Assembly: GCA_964354215.1 (NCBI GenBank)
Contig: CAYGYT010000001.1
Span: 11,199-75,198, forward strand
Direction: 5' to 3'
DNA: 64,000 bases
Source of the DNA: an uncultured Eubacteriales bacterium
GTDB lineage: Bacteria; Actinomycetota; Coriobacteriia; Anaerosomatales; CAVRZR01
This document shows, piece after piece, positions 1-41,673 of this stretch; positions within the stretch are counted from its first letter, which is position 1; every line of letters starts with the position of its first letter. The position numbers and the translations under genes are program-made. Under the pieces are notes generated by a model. That model searched no databases. It worked only from the letters and a program-made list of their open reading frames with translations, and was not told where the DNA came from.

Positions 1-479
1 GTCTCCGCAGCGGCAAGCTCAAGCGGCGCTGAGCAGACACGCCTCGCCAATTCGAGGTTCGGCTGAGAGCAGATGACTAACCCGGCGGGGATTGAGATGG
101 CGCCTGCTGCCGTTCGTCTAGCTTAGGCGTCCTGGGCGCATGTATGTCTCTGGTGGGCCATAGTTGACAACCTTCGAACCCCGTGACTGGACCGACTTCC
201 TCGGGCACCTGGGGTCCCGGTCTCGTTGACATGCGGCACGTGAGAACCGAGAATCTGCCCAACTCAAGAGTGTGAATGGGTCCGTGGCCGAGGGGTCGCG
301 GAGGTGTTCGGAATGGACGGTCGGGCCGCCGTCCAGAGTCAGGTGACTTCGGGTGGCGGTCTTCTAGTTCTCTGGAGGTACAAAGGGTCCCTACCGGCAG
401 ACGGGACCGAGGCAATCGCATAGTGGGTCCGGAGTGCCTCGTCACCGGAGGCGCCCCGGAGGTGATCGAAAGGCAGTCG

Positions 480-7199: not shown

Positions 7200-7275
7200 T
7201 GGAGCGGGCGACGGGTCTCGAACCCGCGACCTAAAGCTTGGGAAGCTTTCGCTCTACCAACTGAGCTACGCCCGC
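7200..7275 (-). tRNA. tRNA-Gly (anticodon CCC), CCA encoded
   Basis: The reverse complement gcgggcgtagctcagttggtagagcgaaagcttcccaagctttaggtcgcgggttcgagacccgtcgcccgctcca folds as a cloverleaf. Anticodon loop is ttCCCaa and the T-loop is ttcgaga. Confidence 0.92.
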
Positions 7276-17963: not shown

Positions 17964-18443
17964 CTAGTCGTGTGTGGATCGGTCCGCGCCGTCACCGCCG
18001 ACAGCGGCCGGCTCGGCCGCCTGGCGCGCCGACGCCCTCTCGGCCGCGCGCTTGTGGCGCTTCGTCTCCATCAGGTGCTTGATGCCGTCGATCGCGTGTC
18101 CCCGGAACATGGAGCGGCGCCCGGAGTAGCGCATCATCTGCCGCTGCCACTCGCGCTCTTGACTGCGATAGCAGTGGACGTCGCAGTTGGCGCAGAACGG
18201 CTTGGGGTCCTTGGGACAGAACGCGCGGCGGTTCTCCCCGTACGCGAGGTGCGCCTCGCACTCCGCGCACAGGACCGGCGGCCTTCGGCCGTAGACGCCG
18301 AGAACGGCCGCGTCCGTGTGGATCGGCGCACGCTCCACACCCCGGTGCAACCCCTGGCAGTAGATCTCCACGAAGTCGCCGAGGGTGCGCGTGTCCTTCG
18401 CGACCGTTCGGTCGCTCATGCGCTCCTCGAACTTCTGATTCAT
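17964..18443 (-). CDS. YgbA_NO (nitrous-oxide-stimulated promoter) family Cys-rich protein
   Basis: DFVEIYCQGLH...LCAECEAHLAYGENRRAFCPKDPKPFCANCDVHCY...MMRYSGRRMF-like pattern. Start set at ATG 18443 (MNQKFE). Confidence 0.7.
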   Translation of the reverse strand: MNQKFEERMSDRTVAKDTRTLGDFVEIYCQGLHRGVERAPIHTDAAVLGVYGRRPPVLCAECEAHLAYGENRRAFCPKDPKPFCANCDVHCYRSQEREWQRQMMRYSGRRSMFRGHAIDGIKHLMETKRHKRAAERASARQAAEPAAVGGDGADRSTHD

Positions 18444-18515
18444 CCGTCCAGCCCTCGCCTGCGATCGTGTCCACATCCACCAGACCGACCCTACGTGCTC
18501 GCGGGAGCGCTATCC

Positions 18516-18529
18516 TTGACGAGCGTCAA
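18516..18529. promoter_or_regulatory. FNR/CRP-type inverted repeat TTGAC-N4-GTCAA
   Basis: Perfect TTGACgagcGTCAA in the divergent promoter region between the Crp/Fnr gene and the YgbA_NO-ferredoxin-cytochrome operon, centred about 79 nt upstream of ATG 18443. Confidence 0.55.
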
Positions 18530-18593
18530 TTCCGACGAAGAATCCTGACCGATCGAGTCGGGTTGCCGATCGGATGAGGAGGAGCCGGGCACG

Positions 18594-19304
18594 ATGGCGG
18601 GACCGGTCCGAGACGATGTCTACGCGGCTCTGCGCGCCTGCCGGCTCTGGCGCGCAGCGGCCGACGAGACCGTCCGCGCTCTGGCAGGGCGCGCGCTCGT
18701 CTCCGATGTCTCCCGCGGGACGCAGCTCGCGACCGAGGGTGACTCCGCCGAGAAGTTCGGTGTGGTCGTCGCGGGGAAGGCCCGGGTCTTCTCGCTTGCG
18801 CCGGACGGGCGTCGCGTAGCGCTCGAAACCGTCGAGCGCGGCGAGCCGCTCGCGGCGCTCGCGGCCCTATCCGGCGGCCGCTACCCGTTCAACATCGACG
18901 CAGTAACACCGGCGACTGTAGCGTGGCTACCCCGGCAAGCGCTTCTCGATCTCGTGGAGCGGGAACCCCAGGTTGCGCGCGACCTCATCGCCGATCTGGC
19001 CGGTCGAGTCGTGCACTTCACGAGCGTCGTGCAGACGCTCACGCTCGACGTTCCCTCTCGCCTGGCTCGCTACCTCTTCCAGCGAGCCCTCCAGACCGGG
19101 CAGACTACGTCGAGTGGACTCCTCGTCGATCTCGGCATGCGCAAGAACGAGCTTGCCGAGGCGCTCGGCACCGTGCCCGAGACGCTCTCGCGGGCGTTCG
19201 CACGCCTCAAGGGCGACGGGATCATTGCCGTTCGCGGCAGTGACGTGACGATCCTCGACATGCGAGCGCTCGCGGCGCTCGGCAGCGGCTACGAGGACGC
19301 CTGA
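18594..19304 (+). CDS. Crp/Fnr-family transcriptional regulator
   Basis: cNMP-binding-like N-terminal domain and C-terminal HTH NELAEALGTVPETLSRAFARLKGDGII. No N-terminal Cys cluster seen. Confidence 0.88.
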   Translation: MAGPVRDDVYAALRACRLWRAAADETVRALAGRALVSDVSRGTQLATEGDSAEKFGVVVAGKARVFSLAPDGRRVALETVERGEPLAALAALSGGRYPFNIDAVTPATVAWLPRQALLDLVEREPQVARDLIADLAGRVVHFTSVVQTLTLDVPSRLARYLFQRALQTGQTTSSGLLVDLGMRKNELAEALGTVPETLSRAFARLKGDGIIAVRGSDVTILDMRALAALGSGYEDA

Positions 19305-20167: not shown

Positions 20168-21136
20168 CTAGAACTCGTCGAGCCGGGCGTCGGCCTTCGT
20201 CGCCGCTTCGCGCGCCCGGTAGTAGCGCTCGGTCGCGCTCGCCGCAAGGTCCTCGTATGCATCCGCGATCGCCTTGCCCGGGGTCTGGGGCAGCCCGCGC
20301 GCCAACTCGACGATGCGTTGCTCCTGCGCGTTGTAGCGTCGGATTGCGGCGTTTGCGGCCAGGATGTTGCCGGCGAGCCAGGCGGTATTCGACCGGCGGG
20401 AAAGGGCGAGCAACGCGACCTTGCCGTCGACGAAGTCGAGGTAGCGCTTGAAGTCGGCCTCGGGAAAGGCCGTTTCCGCCTGGCTGAAGTACGGGCGGGC
20501 CTGCCGAAACTGCCTCGATGCTTGCTCGGCAAGCCTGCTCGAACGCGTGACGCGGTCCTTCGTGAGCTTGTTGTACTGGCGCACCGACTCGTCAGCGAGC
20601 TTCTCGGCGCCGAGCACGAGCGTCCACCCGTCCTGCGCAGGCTTGAGCGCGAGCCCCGCCTTTGCGTTCGCGTCGAGGATCACATCGGCTGGTTCGAGCA
20701 TCCCGATGCGCGCGACCACGGCAGCGCGTACCAGCTGAGCTCGCTTCTGTTCGTCCTCGGTCACGCTGTCCATCGAGTCCGCGATCAGCCGCCGAGCTTC
20801 GACCAGGTCAGCACGAGCGACCGGGATCTTTGGCCTGAGCGCCGTGGCTTGTGTGGCGATGTCGGGGCTCGCCTCGGCTCGCACGACCTCGTCCACATCG
20901 AGCACGACGGCATCGGACTGCTCGAGCAGCAGCATCGCGCGGTCGAGCTGCCGTGCGCCCTTGAAGCGGCGCGAGATCGCCGAGGAGCCGATGACGCCGG
21001 CGGCAACCAGCACGACGATGACGAGGACGCTCGTGACGATGATGGCCCGGCGACTCAGGCGGCGATACGCCTGCTCCACATGCGGGGGAAGCGGTTGTTC
21101 GTCCAAGCCTGTTTGGACGTTTGGGTCGTCCGTCAC
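20168..21136 (-). CDS. Single-pass membrane-anchored protein with helical extracytoplasmic domain, unknown function
   Basis: GTG 21136 with GGAG 5 nt upstream, TM IIVTSVLVIVVLVAAGVIG, remainder predicted alpha-helical. Confidence 0.55.
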   Translation of the reverse strand: MTDDPNVQTGLDEQPLPPHVEQAYRRLSRRAIIVTSVLVIVVLVAAGVIGSSAISRRFKGARQLDRAMLLLEQSDAVVLDVDEVVRAEASPDIATQATALRPKIPVARADLVEARRLIADSMDSVTEDEQKRAQLVRAAVVARIGMLEPADVILDANAKAGLALKPAQDGWTLVLGAEKLADESVRQYNKLTKDRVTRSSRLAEQASRQFRQARPYFSQAETAFPEADFKRYLDFVDGKVALLALSRRSNTAWLAGNILAANAAIRRYNAQEQRIVELARGLPQTPGKAIADAYEDLAASATERYYRAREAATKADARLDEF

Positions 21137-21299
21137 GCAGTCTCCGGGGTTGGGTGCAGTCGGGCAAGCCGCAGTGACAGCATACTCCCGCCCGCGCGAC
21201 TCTCGAAGCCAGTGCAAAGGGGCGCGCGGTGCACCCGAATTGCTGTCGTTGACGGAACGGTGACAAGGCCGTGGCTGGCACACGTGTTGCTTGCAATTT

Positions 21300-21397
21300 G
21301 GGCGAGCTGGGCGACCCGCCTTCTCCTCCCCCCTCAGGGGCGGAACCCGCCCGCTCGACGCAAAACGAGGCGCGCCCCCCACGCGCCTCGTTTCATT
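21300..21397 (+). ncRNA. Candidate 6C-like small RNA (two stem-loops with C-rich loops; the second is an intrinsic terminator)
   Basis: SL1: gggcg/ccgcc stems enclosing loop ttctcctcccccctca. SL2: aacgaggcgcg-cccccca-cgcgcctcgtt followed by tc att. Lies in a 316-bp gap between divergent genes. Confidence 0.45.
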
Positions 21398-21452
21398 CCC
21401 CAGACCGTTCTCTCGGGTACACTTCTGTCGTTTCTTTGGCGGAAGGAGCGGC

Positions 21453-22421
21453 GTGGCCGAAGCCCTCGAACGACTCGTGAATCTCGCGATGTACCTCGCA
21501 TCCGCGCGCGCCCCGGTCACCTGGGAACAGGTGCGCGCGCACGTCGACGGGTACCCCGCGCACCAGGACCAGGCGGCCTTTCTCCGCATGTTCGAGCGGG
21601 ACAAGGAGGACCTTCGGGAAGCGGGACTCGTCATCGAGTCCGACGCGGACGGTGCCTACCGGCTTGATGCCGCAGCAACGTTCGCGAGCGAGATTTCGTT
21701 GTCGGCTGCCGAGACTGCCACGGTGCGAGCCGTAGGGGCGGCATTCCTCGACGACGAGTCGTTTCCATTCTCCGACGATCTGCGGATAGCACTCGCCAAA
21801 GTCGCGACGAGCGTGCAGGCCGACCATGCCCCAGTAGTGTCCCGGCTTGCCGAGGAACAGCCCGGCCGACAGGGCGCCTCCGTAGCGCTGCTCGATCGTG
21901 CGATCCTGGCGCGCAAGCGAGTCGAGTTCCGCTACGTGAACGCCGCAGGAGAGCGCAAACGGCACTCGGTGGAACCCTTCGGGTTGTTCCTGCGGGACGG
22001 CAGGTGGTACCTCGTCGGCAGAGACCGCGACCTCGACAAGGTCCGGCTGTACGCGGTCCTGAGGATCCAATCGATACAGGCGAACCGCGTACGACCGAAA
22101 TCCCCTGACTTCGATCGGCCGACCGATTTCGATGTGCGGTCCTTCATCGCCCTCCCGTTCCAGTACGGGAGAGATCCGTTCGAGGCGAGTGTCCGCTTCG
22201 AGCCGGCCCATGCATGGCGCACACGGACGCTGACGACGGGGTCGGGAACGCTCGATGAGGCCGATGACGGCTCGATCGAGTGGACGATCGCGGCACGCGA
22301 CCCGGAGCGGCTGATGCGCTGGGTCGTAGAGAACGGACCAGGCCTCACCTTGATCTCTCCAACGGGTCTGGTGCGCGAACTCCGCGAGAGGTGTGCGCAG
22401 GTGGCGGCGCGTCATGGCTAG
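21453..22421 (+). CDS. HTH-WYL-domain transcriptional regulator (PafB-like)
   Basis: N-terminal wHTH (ALERLVNLAMYLAS...), WYL region (RDGRWYLVGRDRDLDKVRLYAVLRI) and C-terminal WCX-like domain. GTG 21453 is preceded by GGAAGGAG. Confidence 0.75.
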   Translation: MAEALERLVNLAMYLASARAPVTWEQVRAHVDGYPAHQDQAAFLRMFERDKEDLREAGLVIESDADGAYRLDAAATFASEISLSAAETATVRAVGAAFLDDESFPFSDDLRIALAKVATSVQADHAPVVSRLAEEQPGRQGASVALLDRAILARKRVEFRYVNAAGERKRHSVEPFGLFLRDGRWYLVGRDRDLDKVRLYAVLRIQSIQANRVRPKSPDFDRPTDFDVRSFIALPFQYGRDPFEASVRFEPAHAWRTRTLTTGSGTLDEADDGSIEWTIAARDPERLMRWVVENGPGLTLISPTGLVRELRERCAQVAARHG

Positions 22422-23346
22422 GGCCACTGCCTCCGAGCGGGCGAAGCGGATGCTCGCCATCCTCCATTTGCTCCAGCCTGGTACCGAGCTCTCCCTCGAC
22501 ACCATGGCCGACGCGCTCGGCATCCCCTCAGCCGAGCTTGCCGACGATCTCGAGACGCTTTCGTGCTGCGGCCTGGCCCCCTACACGCCCGATGCACTCG
22601 TTCCAGTGCTCGTCGAAGACACCGTAGCACTCGTGTGGGGTGACCTCCCGGCGCTTGAGCGGGCGGTGCGGCTGTCCGCGAACCAAGCTCACGCGGTCCT
22701 CGCGGCGCTCCAAGCCGCGGGGCTACCCGCGGACGATCCGCTGTGTCGAAAGCTCGTCGCAGCTACGTCTGCAGACGCCACCGATGCCGAGCGCTTCGAA
22801 CGGGTCCTGTCGAGCGCACGAGCCGAGGGAGCACAGGACGTGCTCAAGGCCGCGTCGCTCGCCCTCGCAAACAGACGCGTCATCCGGCTGAGCTATCAGG
22901 GGGCCGGGGAGAGCACACCACGCGAACGCGTCGTGGAGCCCCTGGGGCTCGTGAACGAGCGAGGTCACTGGTACCTCGAGGCATTCGTACGCGACGCCGG
23001 TTCGCTCAGGACCTTTCGGCTCGACCGGGTTCGCTCGATCGACGTGCTCCCGGACCGTGCGCCCGAGCGGGCCCTCGCCCCATCAGGCGTCGCGTTTGTA
23101 ACGACAGGTCTTCCGGTCGCACGCATACGCCTGTCGACGAACGAAGAGGTGTCGGCGCGCGACTGGCCCGGCATGCGCGTGGTGGCACAGGACGAGACTG
23201 GCGTCCTCATCGACGTGCCCTACTCGGGTACCACGTGGGTCTCTCGGCAGGTGCTCTCGAGGCTCGGGGCCGCCGAGGTGCTCGCGCCGGCCGAGCTTCG
23301 CGAAGCCGTGCGGTGCCTCGCCGAGGAGAACTCGGCGAGCTCCTAG
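22414..23346 (+). CDS. HTH-WYL-domain transcriptional regulator (PafC-like)
   Basis: SERAKRMLAILHLL...SLDTMADALGI HTH and NERGHWYLEAFVRDAGSLRTFRLDRV WYL motif. The ATG overlaps the upstream stop (ATGGCTAG). Confidence 0.75.
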   Translation: MARATASERAKRMLAILHLLQPGTELSLDTMADALGIPSAELADDLETLSCCGLAPYTPDALVPVLVEDTVALVWGDLPALERAVRLSANQAHAVLAALQAAGLPADDPLCRKLVAATSADATDAERFERVLSSARAEGAQDVLKAASLALANRRVIRLSYQGAGESTPRERVVEPLGLVNERGHWYLEAFVRDAGSLRTFRLDRVRSIDVLPDRAPERALAPSGVAFVTTGLPVARIRLSTNEEVSARDWPGMRVVAQDETGVLIDVPYSGTTWVSRQVLSRLGAAEVLAPAELREAVRCLAEENSASS

Positions 23347-26231
23347 CGCACGAAACGCGATCCGACGGTGGTAGCGATCTCCTCAGAGGTGAGTATCTCG
23401 ACGTCGTTGACCGGAAGCGCCGCGAGAAACTCACGTCCGTAGCGCTTCGGACCCAACACCCGCGTATCGGCGATGACGAGGCAGCCCGTATCGGTACTAC
23501 TCCTGATGAGTCGGCCGGCCGCCTGTTTGAGCTCGAGAATCGCCTCCGGAAGGTAGTAGTGCTCCCACGCCCGCGGGTCGCGCTCTCGGCGCTCCTCATA
23601 CAGGGGGTCGGTGATCTGCCCGAACGGGAGCCGAGGCACCACGACGCACCTGAGGGTGTCGCCCTTCGCGTCGAATCCCTCCCAGAAGGACTTCGTCGCG
23701 AACAGCGAGAGCTTCTCGTGGGCAACGAACTCGTCCCTGAGTCGCTTGGACGAGGTGCCGCGACTCTGAACCAGCAGGCTCACGCCACGTGCCTCGAGCC
23801 GCGGAGCAAGGACGTCGTAGAGCGTCTCCATCTCCCGCCTGTTCGTAAACAGCGTGAGCACCGAGCCGCCCAGCGCCAGGTGGATCGATTCGAGCAGCCG
23901 CTCGAGGCCACCCTGATAGTCGCGGGTGTTCGGGTGAGGTACGTCGCTCGGCACGAACACCGACATCTGGCGATCGAAGTCGTAGGAAGAGGCAAGTCGA
24001 AGCGAGCGCCACGACTCCGCCGGCAGCCGGTCGAGACCGACGGCGTGCGCAAAGAAACCAAAGTCATCACCCGCGGCAAGCGTGGCAGAAGTGAAGATGA
24101 CGGAGTGCGTGCGGCCGAAGAACTCCTCGGCGAGCAGCTCACCCACGTCGAGACGCGCGGCCTTGAGTCTCTCTGCATCGACCGTTCTGCGGCGATCCAG
24201 CCGCACGGAGTACACGTACTCATCGGCGTCGCCCTCGAGCACGGCGACGAGTCCCTCGTACTGCTCGGCGAGACGGGAGAGCAAGCCGACGAGATCGGCG
24301 CGCACTTCGAACAGCTGCTCCTCCTCAGCCTCGAGCGACGTCACGAGCTCGCGCCCCTCGGTCAGGAGCTGCTCGAGCCGCTTCGCGAGGCTTCTACCCA
24401 CACCGGCAGCCGTGCTCCACGGGCCGGAGTCCCGAACGTGCGGCGTGAGCCGAAGCTCGCACGCGTCGTAGTCGCTCGCAGGTTGGAGCGCCGCAAGGTC
24501 CTTCACGAAGTCGAAGAACGAATCCGCGAGCGTCCCGGCGCGTCCCGCTGCCTCTTCGATACGCGCGACAAGTCCCAACAGCGACGATGCGTCCGGCCGC
24601 GCCACCAGCGCCCTGCGGAGCGAGTCAAGCGTCCCGCTACGCGAGCCCTTGAGCGCGGCGAGGATGGCCGCGAGTTCCTGATGGCTGGAACCCAGCGTGA
24701 GTTGCTTGCGTGCCTCGGCTTCTGCAGCGTGGGCCTCGTCGAGTATCCAGTACCGCACCGGCGGGAGAATGCCGCCGGCCGCGACCACGTCGCGGAACAG
24801 GAGCGCGTGGTTGGTCACGACGACGTGTGCGCTCGACGCGCGCCGCCTCACGCCGTGCACGTAGCAGAGGTGCGGGAAGAATCGGCAGCGCTTGCGGGTG
24901 CAGTCGGCTTGCGTCGCCTGCACGGCCGAGCGCAGTTCGCGACGCCAGTGCAGGTTGATCGCATCCAGGTCACCCCAGGCCGACTGGGCCACCCACGCGT
25001 GCAGGGCAGCCGCCCCCGCAAGCAGTTCGTCGTCCGCAGCCTCGAGCTCTCCAGCGAGTCGGTCGAGCTTGCGCAGACACAGGTAGTGTTCGTAGCCCTT
25101 GAGAGACACGTACTCGAGCGCTCCGAGCGATTCGGCTTCGAGGGCCGCCGCGAGTTTGGGCAATTCGTGGTAGACAAGCTGGTCGGTGAGCGAGTTCGTC
25201 TTGGTGGCCACGCCGACTGCCACGCGGTTCTCAAGCGCGAACAGCGCGGCTGGCACGAGGTAGGCGACGGACTTGCCGACTCCCGTCCCCGCCTCGACCG
25301 CGAGGTGAGTTCGCGTGGAGAAGGCCTCCAGCACAGCTGTGGCCATCCGCGTCTGCTCCGCGCGTTGCTCGAACTCGTCGTACATGCGTCCTGCCAGGCC
25401 GAATTCCCCGAGCTGCCTGCACACTTCCTCGACCGGCGGGCACGTACACGCCACATCGTCGGCATCGTCGAATGCCTCGACGCGACCTGCCTTGGTGCCC
25501 TGCCGAAGATCCCGCACGTCGAACGGCCGGGCTGCCTTCCCAGCCGCGTGGTGCGCCAGCACCCGGCGCAGGGCCCACGGCGCGTCGGGGCCGAGAGTTG
25601 CGACGCGCGCGACGAGGGAAGGTGGCAGCGCATCGAGGCCGCACAGGAGAACGCGCCACACGACGGCGAGAGCCTCTACATCGTCGGCCGCGCGATGTGT
25701 CGCCGACGTGGCGCCGAAGGCTTCGGCAAGATCGCGCAGTCGATGGGACCGGAGCCGCGGCAGCGCGATACGTGCAAGCTGGAGGCTGTCGATCCAGGCG
25801 CCGGGGAATGCCATCGTGCCCGCCGCCCGCGTAAGGAACGCCCGATCGAACGCGACGTGGTGCGCGACGACGTCGCGGCCGGCTACGAACTCCGCGAGCC
25901 TGCTCACCGCCGCCTCCACACTCGGCGCTCCGACCACGTCGGCGTCGGCTATGCCGGTGAGCTTAGTCGTCTCGAGCGGCACAGGGTGTCCCGGGTGGAC
26001 CATCGTGTGAAAGCGGCCGAGGACCTCAGGCCCCTGCATGACGAGCGCGGCTACCTCGATGATCGAGTCTCGGTCCGGATCGAAACCGGTCGTCTCTATG
26101 TCGACGATGGCGATCTCGTCTTCGAAACCGAAGACCGCGTCCGTTGCCCGTTCACCGAGCGAGGCGTAGGAATCGATAACCGTCGAATCCGTGCCGGGGA
26201 CAAGGAGTCGCAGAAGCGGGTCAGGAGTCAT
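23343..26231 (-). CDS. dinG: DinG-family helicase fused to an N-terminal DnaQ-like 3'-5' exonuclease
   Basis: Exonuclease motifs IVDIETTGFDP, VAHHVAFDRAFL and HRAADDVEAL. Helicase motifs AGTGVGKSVAYLVPA and ILDEAHAAEA, with a C-terminal helicase domain. Confidence 0.88.
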   Translation of the reverse strand: MTPDPLLRLLVPGTDSTVIDSYASLGERATDAVFGFEDEIAIVDIETTGFDPDRDSIIEVAALVMQGPEVLGRFHTMVHPGHPVPLETTKLTGIADADVVGAPSVEAAVSRLAEFVAGRDVVAHHVAFDRAFLTRAAGTMAFPGAWIDSLQLARIALPRLRSHRLRDLAEAFGATSATHRAADDVEALAVVWRVLLCGLDALPPSLVARVATLGPDAPWALRRVLAHHAAGKAARPFDVRDLRQGTKAGRVEAFDDADDVACTCPPVEEVCRQLGEFGLAGRMYDEFEQRAEQTRMATAVLEAFSTRTHLAVEAGTGVGKSVAYLVPAALFALENRVAVGVATKTNSLTDQLVYHELPKLAAALEAESLGALEYVSLKGYEHYLCLRKLDRLAGELEAADDELLAGAAALHAWVAQSAWGDLDAINLHWRRELRSAVQATQADCTRKRCRFFPHLCYVHGVRRRASSAHVVVTNHALLFRDVVAAGGILPPVRYWILDEAHAAEAEARKQLTLGSSHQELAAILAALKGSRSGTLDSLRRALVARPDASSLLGLVARIEEAAGRAGTLADSFFDFVKDLAALQPASDYDACELRLTPHVRDSGPWSTAAGVGRSLAKRLEQLLTEGRELVTSLEAEEEQLFEVRADLVGLLSRLAEQYEGLVAVLEGDADEYVYSVRLDRRRTVDAERLKAARLDVGELLAEEFFGRTHSVIFTSATLAAGDDFGFFAHAVGLDRLPAESWRSLRLASSYDFDRQMSVFVPSDVPHPNTRDYQGGLERLLESIHLALGGSVLTLFTNRREMETLYDVLAPRLEARGVSLLVQSRGTSSKRLRDEFVAHEKLSLFATKSFWEGFDAKGDTLRCVVVPRLPFGQITDPLYEERRERDPRAWEHYYLPEAILELKQAAGRLIRSSTDTGCLVIADTRVLGPKRYGREFLAALPVNDVEILTSEEIATTVGSRFVR

Positions 26232-26313
26232 CCGCCAAGCCTAGCACGCGGCCCTGACCGTCCGGGCCGCCATCCGGACCGCCAGCAAGGCAGCCCACAG
26301 GCGCAACCGCGGT

Positions 26314-34382: not shown

Positions 34383-35081
34383 CTACCGCAGATGGCCGAA
34401 CCGAACCGTGTCGACGACGACGAGCATCGTCCACCATAGCGCGACGCCGCCAAGCGTCGCGAGCGCGCCCTTGAGAAGCGCCTCCGTGAACAGGCCGTCA
34501 TGCGAGGCGCCGCTCGAGCGCAGGAGCGCCGCAAGCCACACGGCCACGACGAGGAGGGGGCCGGCTGCTGTCAAGCCTAGCCCCACGATGACCATGCGCG
34601 CGTACAGCCCCGAGGCGTAGACGACATCCCCGGTCGGGGTCTCCATCAGGAGCCAGCCCGCGATGCCACAAAGCGAGATCCACACGGCGAAGTAGGCGAC
34701 GAACGGCCAGCTCGGAGTGTGTGTGCGCGACAGCCCTGCCGCGGGGGACAGCGCCGAAGCGGAACCGCCAGCTGCACCTTCGGAGGAGGCGTCGGGAGTC
34801 GTGACGCCGTCGGCGGGGGGCGCATCGCTATCAGTGGGTTCTGAGATCGGGACGGTGACATCCGGATCGGCGGTCAGCGCGGTAGCCTCGGACAAGCCGG
34901 GCTCGGCGTAGACGGGCTCGGCGTCGACGGGCTCGGTGTCGACGGGCTCGTCAGCGTCCAACGACGCTACTATCGCGAGCAGATCGGCCGGCGGAGTGTC
35001 CACAGCTGACGCCGATGGGGTATCCAACGCCTGTGCGATATCGGATCCGGGCGACTCGGTCAAAATGGCAGTCCTCGGCAA
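34383..35081 (-). CDS. Hypothetical membrane protein with acidic low-complexity N-terminal half
   Basis: Four hydrophobic helices in the C-terminal half. Start codon uncertain (TTG 35081 per track). Confidence 0.5.
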   Translation of the reverse strand: MPRTAILTESPGSDIAQALDTPSASAVDTPPADLLAIVASLDADEPVDTEPVDAEPVYAEPGLSEATALTADPDVTVPISEPTDSDAPPADGVTTPDASSEGAAGGSASALSPAAGLSRTHTPSWPFVAYFAVWISLCGIAGWLLMETPTGDVVYASGLYARMVIVGLGLTAAGPLLVVAVWLAALLRSSGASHDGLFTEALLKGALATLGGVALWWTMLVVVDTVRFGHLR

Positions 35082-36610: not shown

Positions 36611-37966
36611 CTATGCCTTCTTGCGGCGCGAGCGCAAGAAGGCGACGAGCCCGATCACGAGAGCGCCGAGAACTGCAACGGCCAAGACGGCCGGCAGCGC
36701 GCTGTTCCACTTCTCGGTCGCAGAATCGGACGTCTTTTCGCCTTCAACGGGCGCCGCTGAAGACCGCACGACCTGCTCGGCTGTGGCCATCTGGGTGGTT
36801 GGGTTCTCGACCTCGGCCTTCTCGGCAAGTTCCTCAGGCAGCGAGCGGTAGTTGAGGGTCGCAACGATCGTGGCCGAGGGCTGGTCGGGCATCGTGATGG
36901 TGTAGGTCTGGGTAACGGACGCCTGGGGCGGGATCCTGTCATCGGAGTGGACGCCGGTGGCCTCCCAGAGCTCCACCGGGTGCCGCCCCTTGTCGTCCTT
37001 CAGCACGGTTCCGAACTGGCGGGTACCGAGCGCCGTCTCCTTGCCGTCCGGCCCTGCTGCGGTCACGTCCAGCCACATCTGGCGCACCTCGGTAAGCCCG
37101 GTGGGCAAGTAGTGTCCCGCGCCCACGTTGGTGATCGTCACGGTCACCAACGCCGAGGCGCCCGGGGCAAGGATCTCCGGGGCATCGAGGCGCATCTCGG
37201 CTGCAGCCTTGAGGTTTGCGGTCGCGCGCTCCGCGTCACCCTGGCCCACGTTGCCCCCCACGAAGGTCATCGTGTAGATGTGCTCGCGCTGAGGGCCGCC
37301 TGCTGCGGCCTTGCCGGGATTGGGCTTCGTCACGCCGGGGCCCGGGGTCATGTGGCAGTCCTGGCAGACGACTCCAGCCTTCGCGTACGGGCCGTTCTTC
37401 CATTCTGAGTACGAGGACTCGAGGTGCATGCCGTTCACGGGATGGTCGACGTTGTGGCACGCGCCGCAGAACTCAGCCGACTCGTGGAACGCCGAGTAGG
37501 CGGTCGCGTGGACCGGAGAGACGGCGTCTTTGAGCTGGGCCCTCTTGGTTCCATCGAGTTTCAGGATCTGCGAGGTGTTGGACGGCGGCATAGTAGTACC
37601 TACCACTTGATGACAGAAGTCGCAGAAGACGCCCTGCGCCGATTGAGGAGAGAGCTTGCCGGTCGCGGCCTCTCCCGACATCACGGCCACGGGACCGTGG
37701 CAGGTGTCGCAGAATGCGCCCAGCTTCCCGTCGGTGGCCTTGTTCGCCTCGGCCTTCTTGGCCTGGTACGCCGGGTCGGCGAGTGCCTTGGCGTGCATCG
37801 TGACACTCCACTGGCTCAACAGTCCCGCGTGACAGCCGCAGGCCTCAGCGGGCTTGAAGGCCCTGGACGGCGCGTTTGGTAGTGCGCCAGCCCCCTGGAC
37901 CGCGCTCAGACAACCGATCAGAACAACCGCACTCGCTATGCACAGCTGAAACCGAATCGGCCTCAT
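36611..37966 (-). CDS. Multihaem c-type cytochrome, signal peptide plus C-terminal TM anchor (4 CxxCH and 1 CxCH)
   Basis: ACGCH (37829-37840), CDTCH, CDFCH, CGACH and CQDCH. C-terminal LPAVLAVAVLGALVIGLVAFLRSRRKK. Start set at MRPIRF (37966). Confidence 0.85.
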   Translation of the reverse strand: MRPIRFQLCIASAVVLIGCLSAVQGAGALPNAPSRAFKPAEACGCHAGLLSQWSVTMHAKALADPAYQAKKAEANKATDGKLGAFCDTCHGPVAVMSGEAATGKLSPQSAQGVFCDFCHQVVGTTMPPSNTSQILKLDGTKRAQLKDAVSPVHATAYSAFHESAEFCGACHNVDHPVNGMHLESSYSEWKNGPYAKAGVVCQDCHMTPGPGVTKPNPGKAAAGGPQREHIYTMTFVGGNVGQGDAERATANLKAAAEMRLDAPEILAPGASALVTVTITNVGAGHYLPTGLTEVRQMWLDVTAAGPDGKETALGTRQFGTVLKDDKGRHPVELWEATGVHSDDRIPPQASVTQTYTITMPDQPSATIVATLNYRSLPEELAEKAEVENPTTQMATAEQVVRSSAAPVEGEKTSDSATEKWNSALPAVLAVAVLGALVIGLVAFLRSRRKKA

Positions 37967-38190
37967 GTCTGTGCCAGACGAGGCACGCTCGGTGATTCCG
38001 ATCTTCTCAGACGCCGTCGTAGTGCGCGCACGGCACCAGCGCGCGAAGGGTATGACTGTCACCGTCCGTCCTTTCCGAACGCGGACCCGATGTCACTCAT
38101 GGTACACGGTGCGCAAATCCGCAGGAAGGGCGCTTGCCTCGCCGCAAACTCCGGGTTCACGCCCGCCCCGACCACGTCATCCGCTGACGG

Positions 38191-40242: not shown

Positions 40243-41673
40243 CTACCTCGTGCGGTCACCGCCGAAGTACTCGGGGACCGTCCGCACCTTCCTGCGGCGT
40301 CGACGCCGGACAAGGGCGAAGACGACTCCCGCAACAATCAACGCGCCGAGCAGCGCCGCGGCTCCTGCAAGCAGCTGCGAGGTGCTCACGCTCGCTCCGC
40401 GCTCGGCCCGACGTTTCGCCTGTTTCGACCCGTAGACCACCTTCTGAGCGCGTGCCATCTCGGTCACGGGGTTCTCGACTCGCGCCTTCTTTGCCATCTC
40501 CTCCGGGAACGACTTGTAGTTCAGGACTGCTTCTACCGCTACGCCGCCCTCGGTTGTCATCGGGAACGCATACGTGGAGTGCACGGCGTTCTTGGGCGGG
40601 ATTCGGTCGTCTGACTGAACAGCCACCGCGTCCCAGAGCTGGACGGGGTAGCGTCCCTCGGCGTCTCGGTACACCGTCCCGAACTGACGACGGCCCAGCA
40701 GTCGCTTCGCCCCATCGGGAGAGACCGCGTTCACCTCGAGCCACATCTGGCGGATCTCCGCGACTCCCGCCGGGATGTAGTGTCCGGCCCCGACGTTCGC
40801 GACGGTGACCTTCACCGATCCGGTCGTTCCGGGCTCGACCACGTCGGACGCCTCGAGCGAGACCCGTGCGGCAGCTTTGAGGTTCATGCGCGCCCGGGGG
40901 GCGTTGCCCAGGGGCACGTTCGCGCCGACGAAGTTCATGAGGTAGACGAAGTTCCGGATCGGTCCCATGGGGGCGGCCCGGCCAACGGTCGGCCCTCCGC
41001 CTGGCCGAGCGCTCATGTGGCAGTCCTGACACACAATGCCGAGGGCCGCGTAGGGCCCCGCTTTCCACTCGGGGTAGGTCGTGTCGAGCATGACCCCCGT
41101 GGTGGGGTGCTTGAGTGTATGGCACGCGCCACAGAACTCCGCGCTCGTGTGGAACTTGGAGAAGGCGTTCTTGTGAGTCGGCGCCGACGAATCGGGGTAC
41201 TGGGCTCGCTTCGTGCCGTTGGCCCGCAGCTTCTGAGAGGCGTTTCGTATCGGCTTCTTCGTGCCGGTGACCTGGTGGCAGAAGTCGCAGGTCACTCCCT
41301 CCTTGCTCTGAGGAGAGAGCTTCGACTCGCCTTTCGTCTGCCCCGCCATAGTTCCGATAGGCGTGTGGCAGGTGTCGCAGAACGTACCGAGGCTCCCGCC
41401 CGTGGCTTTGTTGGCCTCTTGCTTCTTGACCACGTACACGGGGTCGTAGAGAGCCTTCGCGTGCATCGACAGAGCCCATTCGTCACGCTGCTGCCCATGG
41501 CACGTGCAGGAGGTGGCGGGCTGGAAGCGTTTCGCAGGGATGTCTGGCAGCGCCTCGGCCTGCTGCGGCAGCATGCAGAGGAGTACCGAGGCGATCGCAC
41601 ACGCGGAGACGACCGCGCCGGCTCGAATCGCTCGCAGAGTGGGGCGGGGAGGTGTGCTGGTGGTTCGTGCCAT
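40243..41673 (-). CDS. Multihaem c-type cytochrome, paralogue of 36611-37966 (4 CxxCH and 1 CxCH, C-terminal anchor)
   Basis: SCTCH (41497-41508), CDTCH, CDFCH, CGACH and CQDCH. C-terminal LLAGAAALLGALIVAGVVFALVRRRRRRK. GGAGG RBS before ATG 41673. Confidence 0.85.
   Translation of the reverse strand: MARTTSTPPRPTLRAIRAGAVVSACAIASVLLCMLPQQAEALPDIPAKRFQPATSCTCHGQQRDEWALSMHAKALYDPVYVVKKQEANKATGGSLGTFCDTCHTPIGTMAGQTKGESKLSPQSKEGVTCDFCHQVTGTKKPIRNASQKLRANGTKRAQYPDSSAPTHKNAFSKFHTSAEFCGACHTLKHPTTGVMLDTTYPEWKAGPYAALGIVCQDCHMSARPGGGPTVGRAAPMGPIRNFVYLMNFVGANVPLGNAPRARMNLKAAARVSLEASDVVEPGTTGSVKVTVANVGAGHYIPAGVAEIRQMWLEVNAVSPDGAKRLLGRRQFGTVYRDAEGRYPVQLWDAVAVQSDDRIPPKNAVHSTYAFPMTTEGGVAVEAVLNYKSFPEEMAKKARVENPVTEMARAQKVVYGSKQAKRRAERGASVSTSQLLAGAAALLGALIVAGVVFALVRRRRRRKVRTVPEYFGGDRTR

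Follow-up and report, generated by a model that had tools for sequence, protein, structure and literature searches.

What is encoded in the 316-bp gap (positions 21137-21452) that separates two divergent genes in a 64-kb stretch of DNA from an uncultured actinobacterial lineage (contig CAYGYT010000001.1, positions 11,199 to 75,198)? This whole stretch, referred to below as the window, carries in the gap two plus-strand stem-loops with cytosine-rich loops, which the initial annotation read as a small RNA (sRNA) of the 6C type. The answer that we prefer, with a probability of about 0.6, is a stand-alone gene for a trans-acting regulatory RNA of ~95 nt, which would belong to a family not in Rfam and lie behind a sigma-54-type promoter. 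The gap is as first described, and both flanking gene boundaries agree with those called independently on a Logan metagenome contig of identical sequence.

Structure and conservation of the RNA

The plus strand of 21295-21400 folds with a minimum free energy (MFE) of -52.4 kcal/mol, to be compared with -36.7±3.6 kcal/mol for dinucleotide shuffles (z = -4.4). The minus strand of the element also folds well (z = -3.2). The 5' end of the predicted transcript was placed 12 nt past the GC of the -12 element described below, and its 3' end in the U-rich tail (Table 1). The first stem-loop (SL1) comprises three helical segments. In P1, CGAGC (21303-21307) pairs with GCUCG (21353-21357), and U21308 is bulged. 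P2 is formed by GGGCG (21309-21313) and CGCCC (21348-21352), and P3, the arms of which surround the C-rich loop, by CCGCC (21316-21320) and GGCGG (21339-21343). The second stem-loop (SL2) has the loop CCCCCCA (21375-21381) and is followed by the tail UUUCAUU. Each loop holds exactly six consecutive C, at 21328-21333 and 21375-21380. The initial annotation had described SL2 correctly, as an 11-13-bp stem around CCCCCCA with a T-rich run, as well as the C-rich loop of SL1; the stem of SL1, in contrast, is an interrupted helix of 15-17 bp and not a 5-bp hairpin, the GGGCG named there pairing with CGCCC as the second segment. Neither a dispersed repeat nor a second copy of the element was found in the window by a repeat search and a scan with the covariance model R1 (102 positions).

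Relatives were collected by two routes. One genome per species was scanned with the WYL-domain regulator encoded downstream of the element, which yielded 17 orthologous loci (46-68% protein identity) as well as more distant PafB loci of cultured actinobacteria. The record titles of the 17 loci designate metagenome-assembled genomes of Actinomycetota, Actinomycetes or Coriobacteriia, three of them being labelled Eubacteriales. Of these loci, 16 carry the element ahead of the WYL gene; in the remaining one, L008, the contig is cut 78 nt before the gene. Besides, a pattern search based on the RNA alone listed 80 metagenome loci, among which at least three hold true copies (58-100 bits); these came from the RNA sequence without help of the protein, and were not part of the building of R1. 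The window, the 16 orthologous loci and the three metagenome contigs form a set of 20 sequences. R1 detects exactly one copy per orthologous locus (66-103 bits; 58-103 bits across all 19 loci outside the window); in 63 further PafB loci from actinobacteria it detects none.

Both stems covary in these relatives, the point that the initial annotation had suggested checking. When 17 sequences are aligned with MAFFT and the structure is drawn on them by hand, 89.9% of the cells are paired, and 13 of 29 pairs show changes on both sides, against 6.5±1.5 after shuffling (0/500) and 3-9 with slid partners. In the 20-sequence alignment, 93% of cells are paired and the pairs with compensatory changes rise to 16/29, for 7.0±1.5 in shuffles; this alignment was fitted to R1, which favours pairing, and the MAFFT result is independent of that. 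Changes on both sides affect 5/5 pairs of helix 1, 2/5 of helix 2 and 5/7 of helix 3. In SL2, 96% of cells are paired and four pairs have changed on both sides, for example from G-C to A-U in eight sequences. Cells with G-U outnumber those with A-C (33 vs 14 in the 20 sequences), which identifies the plus strand as the RNA strand; the T-rich tail also sits on this strand. The loops are better conserved than the stems: CCCCCUC in loop 1 is invariant in the 17-sequence alignment, and at least six C are found in loop 1 of 19/20 and in loop 2 of 17/20 sequences, the remaining ones having five. The loop sequences are therefore constrained beyond structural need. Since the structure recurs at 19 other loci with compensatory base changes, it lies far above chance, and the reality of a structured RNA gene is strongly supported.

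Putative promoter and terminator, and proposed mode of action

The most unusual feature of the element, missed by the initial annotation, is a sigma-54-type motif ahead of the RNA. The -24/-12 consensus recognized by sigma-54 is YTGGCACGrNNNTTGCW, with GG and GC ten bases apart, and the motif of the window has exactly this spacing. It is the window's sole exact match to TGGCACNNNNNTTGCW over the 64 kb scanned. YTGGCAC-N5-TTGCTT precedes all 20 copies of the RNA, with a fuller consensus of YTGGCACrnnnGTTGCTT; GG, C and TTGC are invariant (20/20), and the A, the leading T and the trailing T are conserved in 19, 18 and 19 of the 20, respectively. Each orthologous locus has a single occurrence of the motif, and the 63 further PafB loci from actinobacteria have none. 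P1 starts 12-15 nt past the -12 GC, where a sigma-54 start would fall, in the 18 copies for which the automatic measure located this helix correctly. No TAnnnT hexamer is conserved between the motif and the RNA in the 20 copies, and no sigma-70-type promoter for the sRNA was called by a scan of the window, L007 and L003. Because the consensus is matched in full, the distance to the RNA is fixed and a -10 box is missing, we lean towards a dependence of the sRNA on sigma-54. A RecA-NDp/PafBC box is not present at the sRNA promoter, and such boxes number 11 in the window for 12 expected by chance.

Two local variations accompany this motif. L002 (~1255-1300) has a degenerate -24 element (AGGCGC-N5-TTGC), with a TAGAAT -10-type box a few bases upstream of it; a sigma-70-type promoter may take the place of the -24/-12 one at this locus. 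Tandem GTGACrG-like repeats (TTGACGG...GGTGACAAGG; 21243-21268, plus strand) are located directly upstream of the -24 element in the window, and at the same position in L001 and L005; they are common only to these three closest sequences and could be an operator or an activator site, serving either the sRNA or the divergent gene.

At the other end of the RNA, SL2 has the form of an intrinsic terminator. The L003 hairpin is called as such on the plus strand, with 13 pairs followed by CCTTTTGT. A simple terminator scan does not call the copies of the window and L007 on the plus strand, probably as part of the T run lies within the stem; for the window element, it reports a terminator-like site on the opposite, minus strand. 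The U tails of relatives are longer, as in UUUCCUUUU, but those of L013, L014 and L016 are poor. A second long G+C-rich hairpin (GGCCCGGCAGCGG...CCGCCGGGCC) follows the sRNA in L013 (~2835-2880), with an equivalent site in L014, L016 and L138. It occurs in the sub-group in which SL2 has a poor U tail, and may be an additional or bidirectional terminator. In all 20 loci, a TA[GC]A[AC]T box, attributed to the WYL gene's own promoter, follows the terminator and lies 28-71 nt ahead of the WYL start codon. A GnTAnAAT-type -10 box is also found at the divergent upstream gene. The separate -10 box downstream of the terminator suggests that the sRNA is a stand-alone gene, transcribed as a unit of its own, and that a housekeeping-type promoter serves the WYL operon.

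From these signals we infer that the predicted sRNA is transcribed. Transcription would start ~12 nt past the -24/-12 element, at the foot of SL1, and stop at SL2 and its U-rich tail, the PafB-like WYL gene being transcribed separately from a sigma-70-type promoter. The stable helices would present two single-stranded C-rich loops, CUCCUCCCCCCUCA and CCCCCC, capable of pairing with target mRNAs, at G-rich or Shine-Dalgarno regions, and thereby of blocking their translation. Pairing would dispense with a chaperone, since G-C-rich loop contacts are strong. This putative mechanism is drawn by analogy from Mycobacterium 6C and from alpha-r14/NfeR1. The 6C RNA of M. tuberculosis binds many mRNAs via its C-rich loops without a chaperone (PMC6486639), and in the alpha-r14/NfeR1 sRNAs, CCUCCUCCC anti-Shine-Dalgarno motifs in hairpin loops serve as seeds (PMC10746234).

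Several observations weigh against such an RNA and such a promoter. Sigma-54 is reported to be effectively absent from Actinomycetota, with a near-absence of rpoN (PMC12316311). Neither rpoN nor an enhancer-binding-protein gene was found in the ~7-kb loci of the lineage or over the 64 kb of the window, using signature motifs and tblastn with E. coli RpoN and the NtrC central domain as queries; the single match of this search is an unrelated metagenome contig (L096). No 7-8-mer that could be an upstream activator site is common to most of the 20 upstream regions. The tail of the window copy is short, and its plus-strand terminator escapes the simple scan. As for targets, duplex energies of loop 1 at -30 to +6 of the PafB-like gene were compared with all sequence windows of each locus: the PafB-like ribosome-binding site is not a distinctive partner (median background percentile, 0.13), and in L015 and L017 loop 1 hardly pairs with this region. 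Nor are G-rich complements enriched in the window, where GAGGGGGGAGGAG with up to three mismatches is found 36 times for 40±6 expected, the sole perfect match being the sRNA gene itself.

Either this uncultured lineage is an exception to the reported absence of sigma-54, or something else reads the motif. Nothing relevant on sigma-54 in Coriobacteriia or OPB41 was found in the literature. The more specific proposal that, in a branch related to Coriobacteriia, RpoN and an activator drive an anti-Shine-Dalgarno sRNA genomically locked to a PafBC-like damage regulator is tentative, and we put it slightly below even odds. If this is true, no sigma-54 regulon member would have been proposed in Actinomycetota before the sRNA, which would also be the first of the 6C-like RNAs to depend on sigma-54; a strictly signal-gated RNA regulator would then stand beside a WYL-type damage sensor. 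The perfectly conserved candidate -24/-12 promoter is a concrete and testable challenge to the published absence of sigma-54 in the phylum. Should rpoN be present, the sRNA would be an entry point to a new regulon; should it be absent, a motif identical to the sigma-54 consensus would be read by something else.

Relation to known RNAs and alternative readings

Two Rfam families alone reach their gathering thresholds in the window, a tRNA and an nhaA-I riboswitch, and neither lies in the element; the RNA has no match at this level in the 16 relatives. With permissive filters, 501 nt of the window give 19.3 bits (E = 3.7) to the 6C model (RF01066), the gathering threshold of which is 47 bits; the distant relatives L013 and L007 reach 23.3 and 23.6 bits, and no 6C match at E<=10 is obtained in a 56-kb search of nine relatives. 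The alignments to 6C are convincing over SL2 only, with many non-canonical pairs in the first helix. The model of ar14 (RF02344; gathering, 58.8 bits) scores 28.7 bits in L007, which is the best sub-threshold Rfam score of any family for this locus, and 15.8 bits in L013; it has no match to the window copy at E<=10. In the L007 alignment, the CUCCUCCUCCC loop of ar14 falls on SL1, and the C-rich loop of its terminator on SL2. As the unrelated alphaproteobacterial ar14 scores as well as 6C or better, these sub-threshold scores reflect a shared design and neither ancestry nor membership.

The likeness to 6C (M. tuberculosis B11/6C, C. glutamicum cgb_03605) is nevertheless extensive. Both are actinobacterial RNAs of ~80-110 nt with two stem-loops and a run of about six C in each loop, the second hairpin doubling as the 3' end, and both are expected to pair without chaperone through C-rich loops with G-rich mRNA sites (PMC6486639). 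The descriptive definition of 6C, two stem-loops with at least six conserved C per loop in Actinobacteria (PMC5014011), describes the present RNA as well. RF01066 is repeatedly among the best sub-threshold matches, at 19-24 bits and on the correct strand, and a member of the Crp family is encoded 2 kb away. The distance between crp/glxR and 6C is presumably ~10-15 genes in M. tuberculosis and C. glutamicum. From this, the element might be a true, highly diverged 6C orthologue with the same ancestry and job, for which the Rfam model is too narrow. We consider this unlikely, since every 6C score is under half of the gathering threshold and the architecture differs. The Rfam consensus of 6C is ~80 nt long, with two simple, directly adjacent hairpins of 12-13 bp, whereas SL1 here is a long helix of three segments with a bulge, an internal loop and an 18-nt CU-rich loop, separated from SL2 by a spacer of 6-9 nt (~9 nt in the window). 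The order of the loops is inverted, the cucUCCCCCCcug-type loop being that of SL2 in 6C and of SL1 here. The promoter class is different as well, 6C of C. glutamicum depending on SigA/SigB (PMC5014011) in place of a -24/-12 element. The neighbourhood is of the pafBC-like/DinG type; tad/ssd-type neighbours of 6C were not found in Pfam scans of ten neighbouring open reading frames (ORFs), nor was a canonical 6C found beside PafB genes in 20 other actinobacterial loci. The 6C identity proposed initially holds as the descriptive hallmark of two loops with six C, and fails as family membership: the check suggested there with RF01066 did not bear it out.

Similarly, the RNA resembles alpha-r14/NfeR1 of Rhizobiales by an anti-Shine-Dalgarno loop motif (the ultraconserved CCUCCUCCC there, CUCCUCCCC here, nearly invariant in the loop for which the initial annotation had suggested such a role), by a terminator-type last hairpin with a C-rich loop, and by fixed loops on variable stems (PMC10746234). 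It differs by having two hairpins and not three, with CUCCUCCCCCC in loop 1 and only a C run in loop 2; alpha-r14 is, moreover, alphaproteobacterial and has a sigma-70-type promoter (PMC10746234). This resemblance is one of convergent design, not of membership. The RNA would thus work like 6C and alpha-r14, yet it is not a demonstrable member of either and represents a new family.

Sigma-54-dependent sRNA genes of Proteobacteria, such as Qrr1-5, GlmY/GlmZ and CrcZ, are strictly signal-dependent through an enhancer-binding protein. They share with the present element a short RNA gene directly behind TGGCAC-N5-TTGC that ends at an intrinsic terminator, here a candidate one. They show no sequence or structure similarity to it, and have an identified activator with upstream sites, none of which was found here. 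In the CcsR/"cuckoo" RNAs of Rhodobacterales and RoxS/RsaE of Firmicutes, hairpin loops with CCUCCUCCC or C-rich motifs pair with ribosome-binding sites. These belong to different phyla, have different structures, and gave no family match in permissive Rfam scans of the element from the window, L013 and L007. The design of C-rich anti-Shine-Dalgarno loops on stable hairpins has either arisen anew or diverged beyond the reach of the 6C model. The 20 sequences and their strong covariation make this a well-supported new sRNA family for a deep, uncultured actinobacterial lineage in which, to our knowledge, no regulatory RNAs are known.

The initial annotation left open whether the hairpins form a separate short transcript or an attenuator of the WYL gene. 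The data favour the former, a discrete RNA gene ending at a probable terminator, with a -10 box of the WYL gene's own in 20/20 loci. As a cis-acting 5' leader of the pafBC-like operon, SL2 would stop or let through transcription, and the loop might mask the operon's Shine-Dalgarno sequence. The RNA does lie immediately upstream of the PafB-like gene, in the same orientation, in 20/20 loci, and a GAGGGGG-type ribosome-binding site perfectly complementary to the invariant CCCCCUC occurs in L002, L008, L091 and L138. We find a leader quite improbable all the same, as the distance from the terminator to the start codon ranges from 52 to 492 nt (~490 nt in L113), with an extra hairpin in between at several loci, no alternative anti-terminator pairing is conserved, and the pairing with the WYL ribosome-binding region is overall no better than background.

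The RNA could also act through a protein partner. The Sm-like WYL domains of the adjacent PafBC-like regulator are one candidate, for which it would be a ligand or decoy; a different poly(C)-binding protein is another. The adjacency of the RNA to the WYL gene pair is tight (20/20, including the three loci found without the protein), and its loop sequences are conserved. An RNA ligand has been considered for PafBC in view of the Sm-like WYL fold, 6C being among the sRNAs discussed (PMC6789036). The adjacency is, however, accounted for by the synteny of a whole block in the lineage (Crp, membrane protein, in some cases a second membrane protein, sRNA, PafB, PafC, DinG), which makes it weak evidence of a functional tie. 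Later work has reportedly identified single-stranded DNA as the PafBC ligand, which also counts against a protein-binding role. Since C-rich sRNA loops have, furthermore, an established base-pairing role (PMC6486639, PMC10746234), we hold a protein ligand to be very improbable. The functional fit to PafBC and DinG advanced at first likewise reduces to this adjacency. The WYL ribosome-binding site is no outstanding partner of the loop.

That there is no RNA gene at all, but a DNA-level element (palindrome, bidirectional terminator, operator) or additional N-terminal codons of the WYL gene, is largely refuted by the covariation and has a negligible probability: an ORF (21291-22421) does cross the element in the WYL frame, and the minus strand folds well with a terminator-like site called there, but the single copy per locus, with none elsewhere in the window, speaks against a dispersed repeat, the element terminates no gene since neither flanking gene ends there, a coding extension is excluded because C runs vary from 5 to 9, other indels also break the triplet frame and stop codons interrupt it in L005 and other relatives, and a plus-strand RNA is indicated by the compensatory changes together with the G-U pairs, which would be A-C on the minus strand.

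The locus and other features of the window

The element and its surroundings are summarized in Table 1.

Table 1. Position of the predicted RNA gene, its signals, the adjacent genes and other RNA features (window coordinates)
Feature	Positions	Strand	Basis and remarks
Sigma-54-type -24/-12 element, TGGCAC-ACGTG-TTGCT (TGGCACACGTGTTGCT)	21276-21291	+	GG 21277-21278, GC 21289-21290; putative promoter
Predicted sRNA transcript, ~92-96 nt	21302-21397	+	Covariance model R1, 99.5 bits; predicted ends
SL1, interrupted helix	21303-21357	+	MFE fold; 15-17 bp in three segments
Loop 1, UUCUCCUCCCCCCUCAGG	21321-21338	+	C-rich, anti-Shine-Dalgarno-like, near-invariant; C6 at 21328-21333
SL2, terminator-type hairpin	21364-21392	+	21364-21374 pairs with 21382-21392; 11 bp, 12 with A21363-U21393
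Short U-rich tail, UCAUU	21393-21397	+	After UU of the stem; read from sequence
TACACT, -10-like box of the PafB-like gene's own promoter	21418-21423	+	Downstream of SL2; putative function
Membrane-anchored protein gene, family not assigned	20168-21136	-	GTG start at 21136
PafB-like WYL/WCX regulator gene	21453-22421	+	GTG start at 21453; Pfam WYL and WCX
PafC-like regulator gene	22414-23346	+	Pfam HTH_PafC/WYL/WCX; start taken from Logan-contig gene call
DnaQ-exonuclease/DinG-family helicase gene	23343-26231	-	Convergent with the pafBC-like genes; Pfam RNase_T, Helicase_C_2
nhaA-I riboswitch (RF03057)	278-334	+	50 bits, gathering 37
tRNA gene	7203-7275	-	Rfam, 70 bits

The PafB-like protein matches the mycobacterial PafB chain 7p5x_AY over its full length (E = 2e-22). 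The PafC-like protein matches the PafC half of 6sj9 (residues 342-653, E = 3e-26) and the PafC chain 7p5x_AX. Such a pair of genes fits an actinobacterial origin. The ORF that crosses the sRNA has a TTG start at 21291 and remains open over the entire RNA in frame with the WYL gene, so that automatic annotation could wrongly add 54 residues to the WYL protein, over the RNA gene. On the other side of the gap, the membrane-anchored protein has no match in Pfam or NCBIfam, and its gene is kept upstream in most, not all, of the orthologous loci. A YgbA_NO-family gene and a ferredoxin-like gene (17964-19304; also in L201) adjoin the Crp/Fnr-type regulator upstream of the sRNA locus, and this Crp gene belongs to the conserved block holding the sRNA.

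The best matches of the DnaQ/DinG-type product are NCBIfam DinG models, yet under their cut-offs. On the minus strand, GGTCAGGG-N8-TAGGCT (26238-26259) ends 6 nt before the ATG of this gene (start at 26231), which suggests that the DinG mRNA may be leaderless. This promoter resembles the mycobacterial PafBC-dependent RecA-NDp motif (TGTCRGTG-N8-TAnnnT) with two mismatches; since window-wide counts of the motif are at chance, only its position is suggestive.

Repeats are found further along the window. The stretches 37439-37800 and 41104-41468 (repeat families D2 and D6) lie 3.67 kb from each other, share 71-79% identity and probably belong to paralogous genes; a 493-residue ORF at 36611-38092 has no Pfam match. 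Finally, a 15-nt unit (GACGGGCTCGGCGTC) is present in three tandem copies at 34896-34951, and is probably a short in-frame coding repeat.

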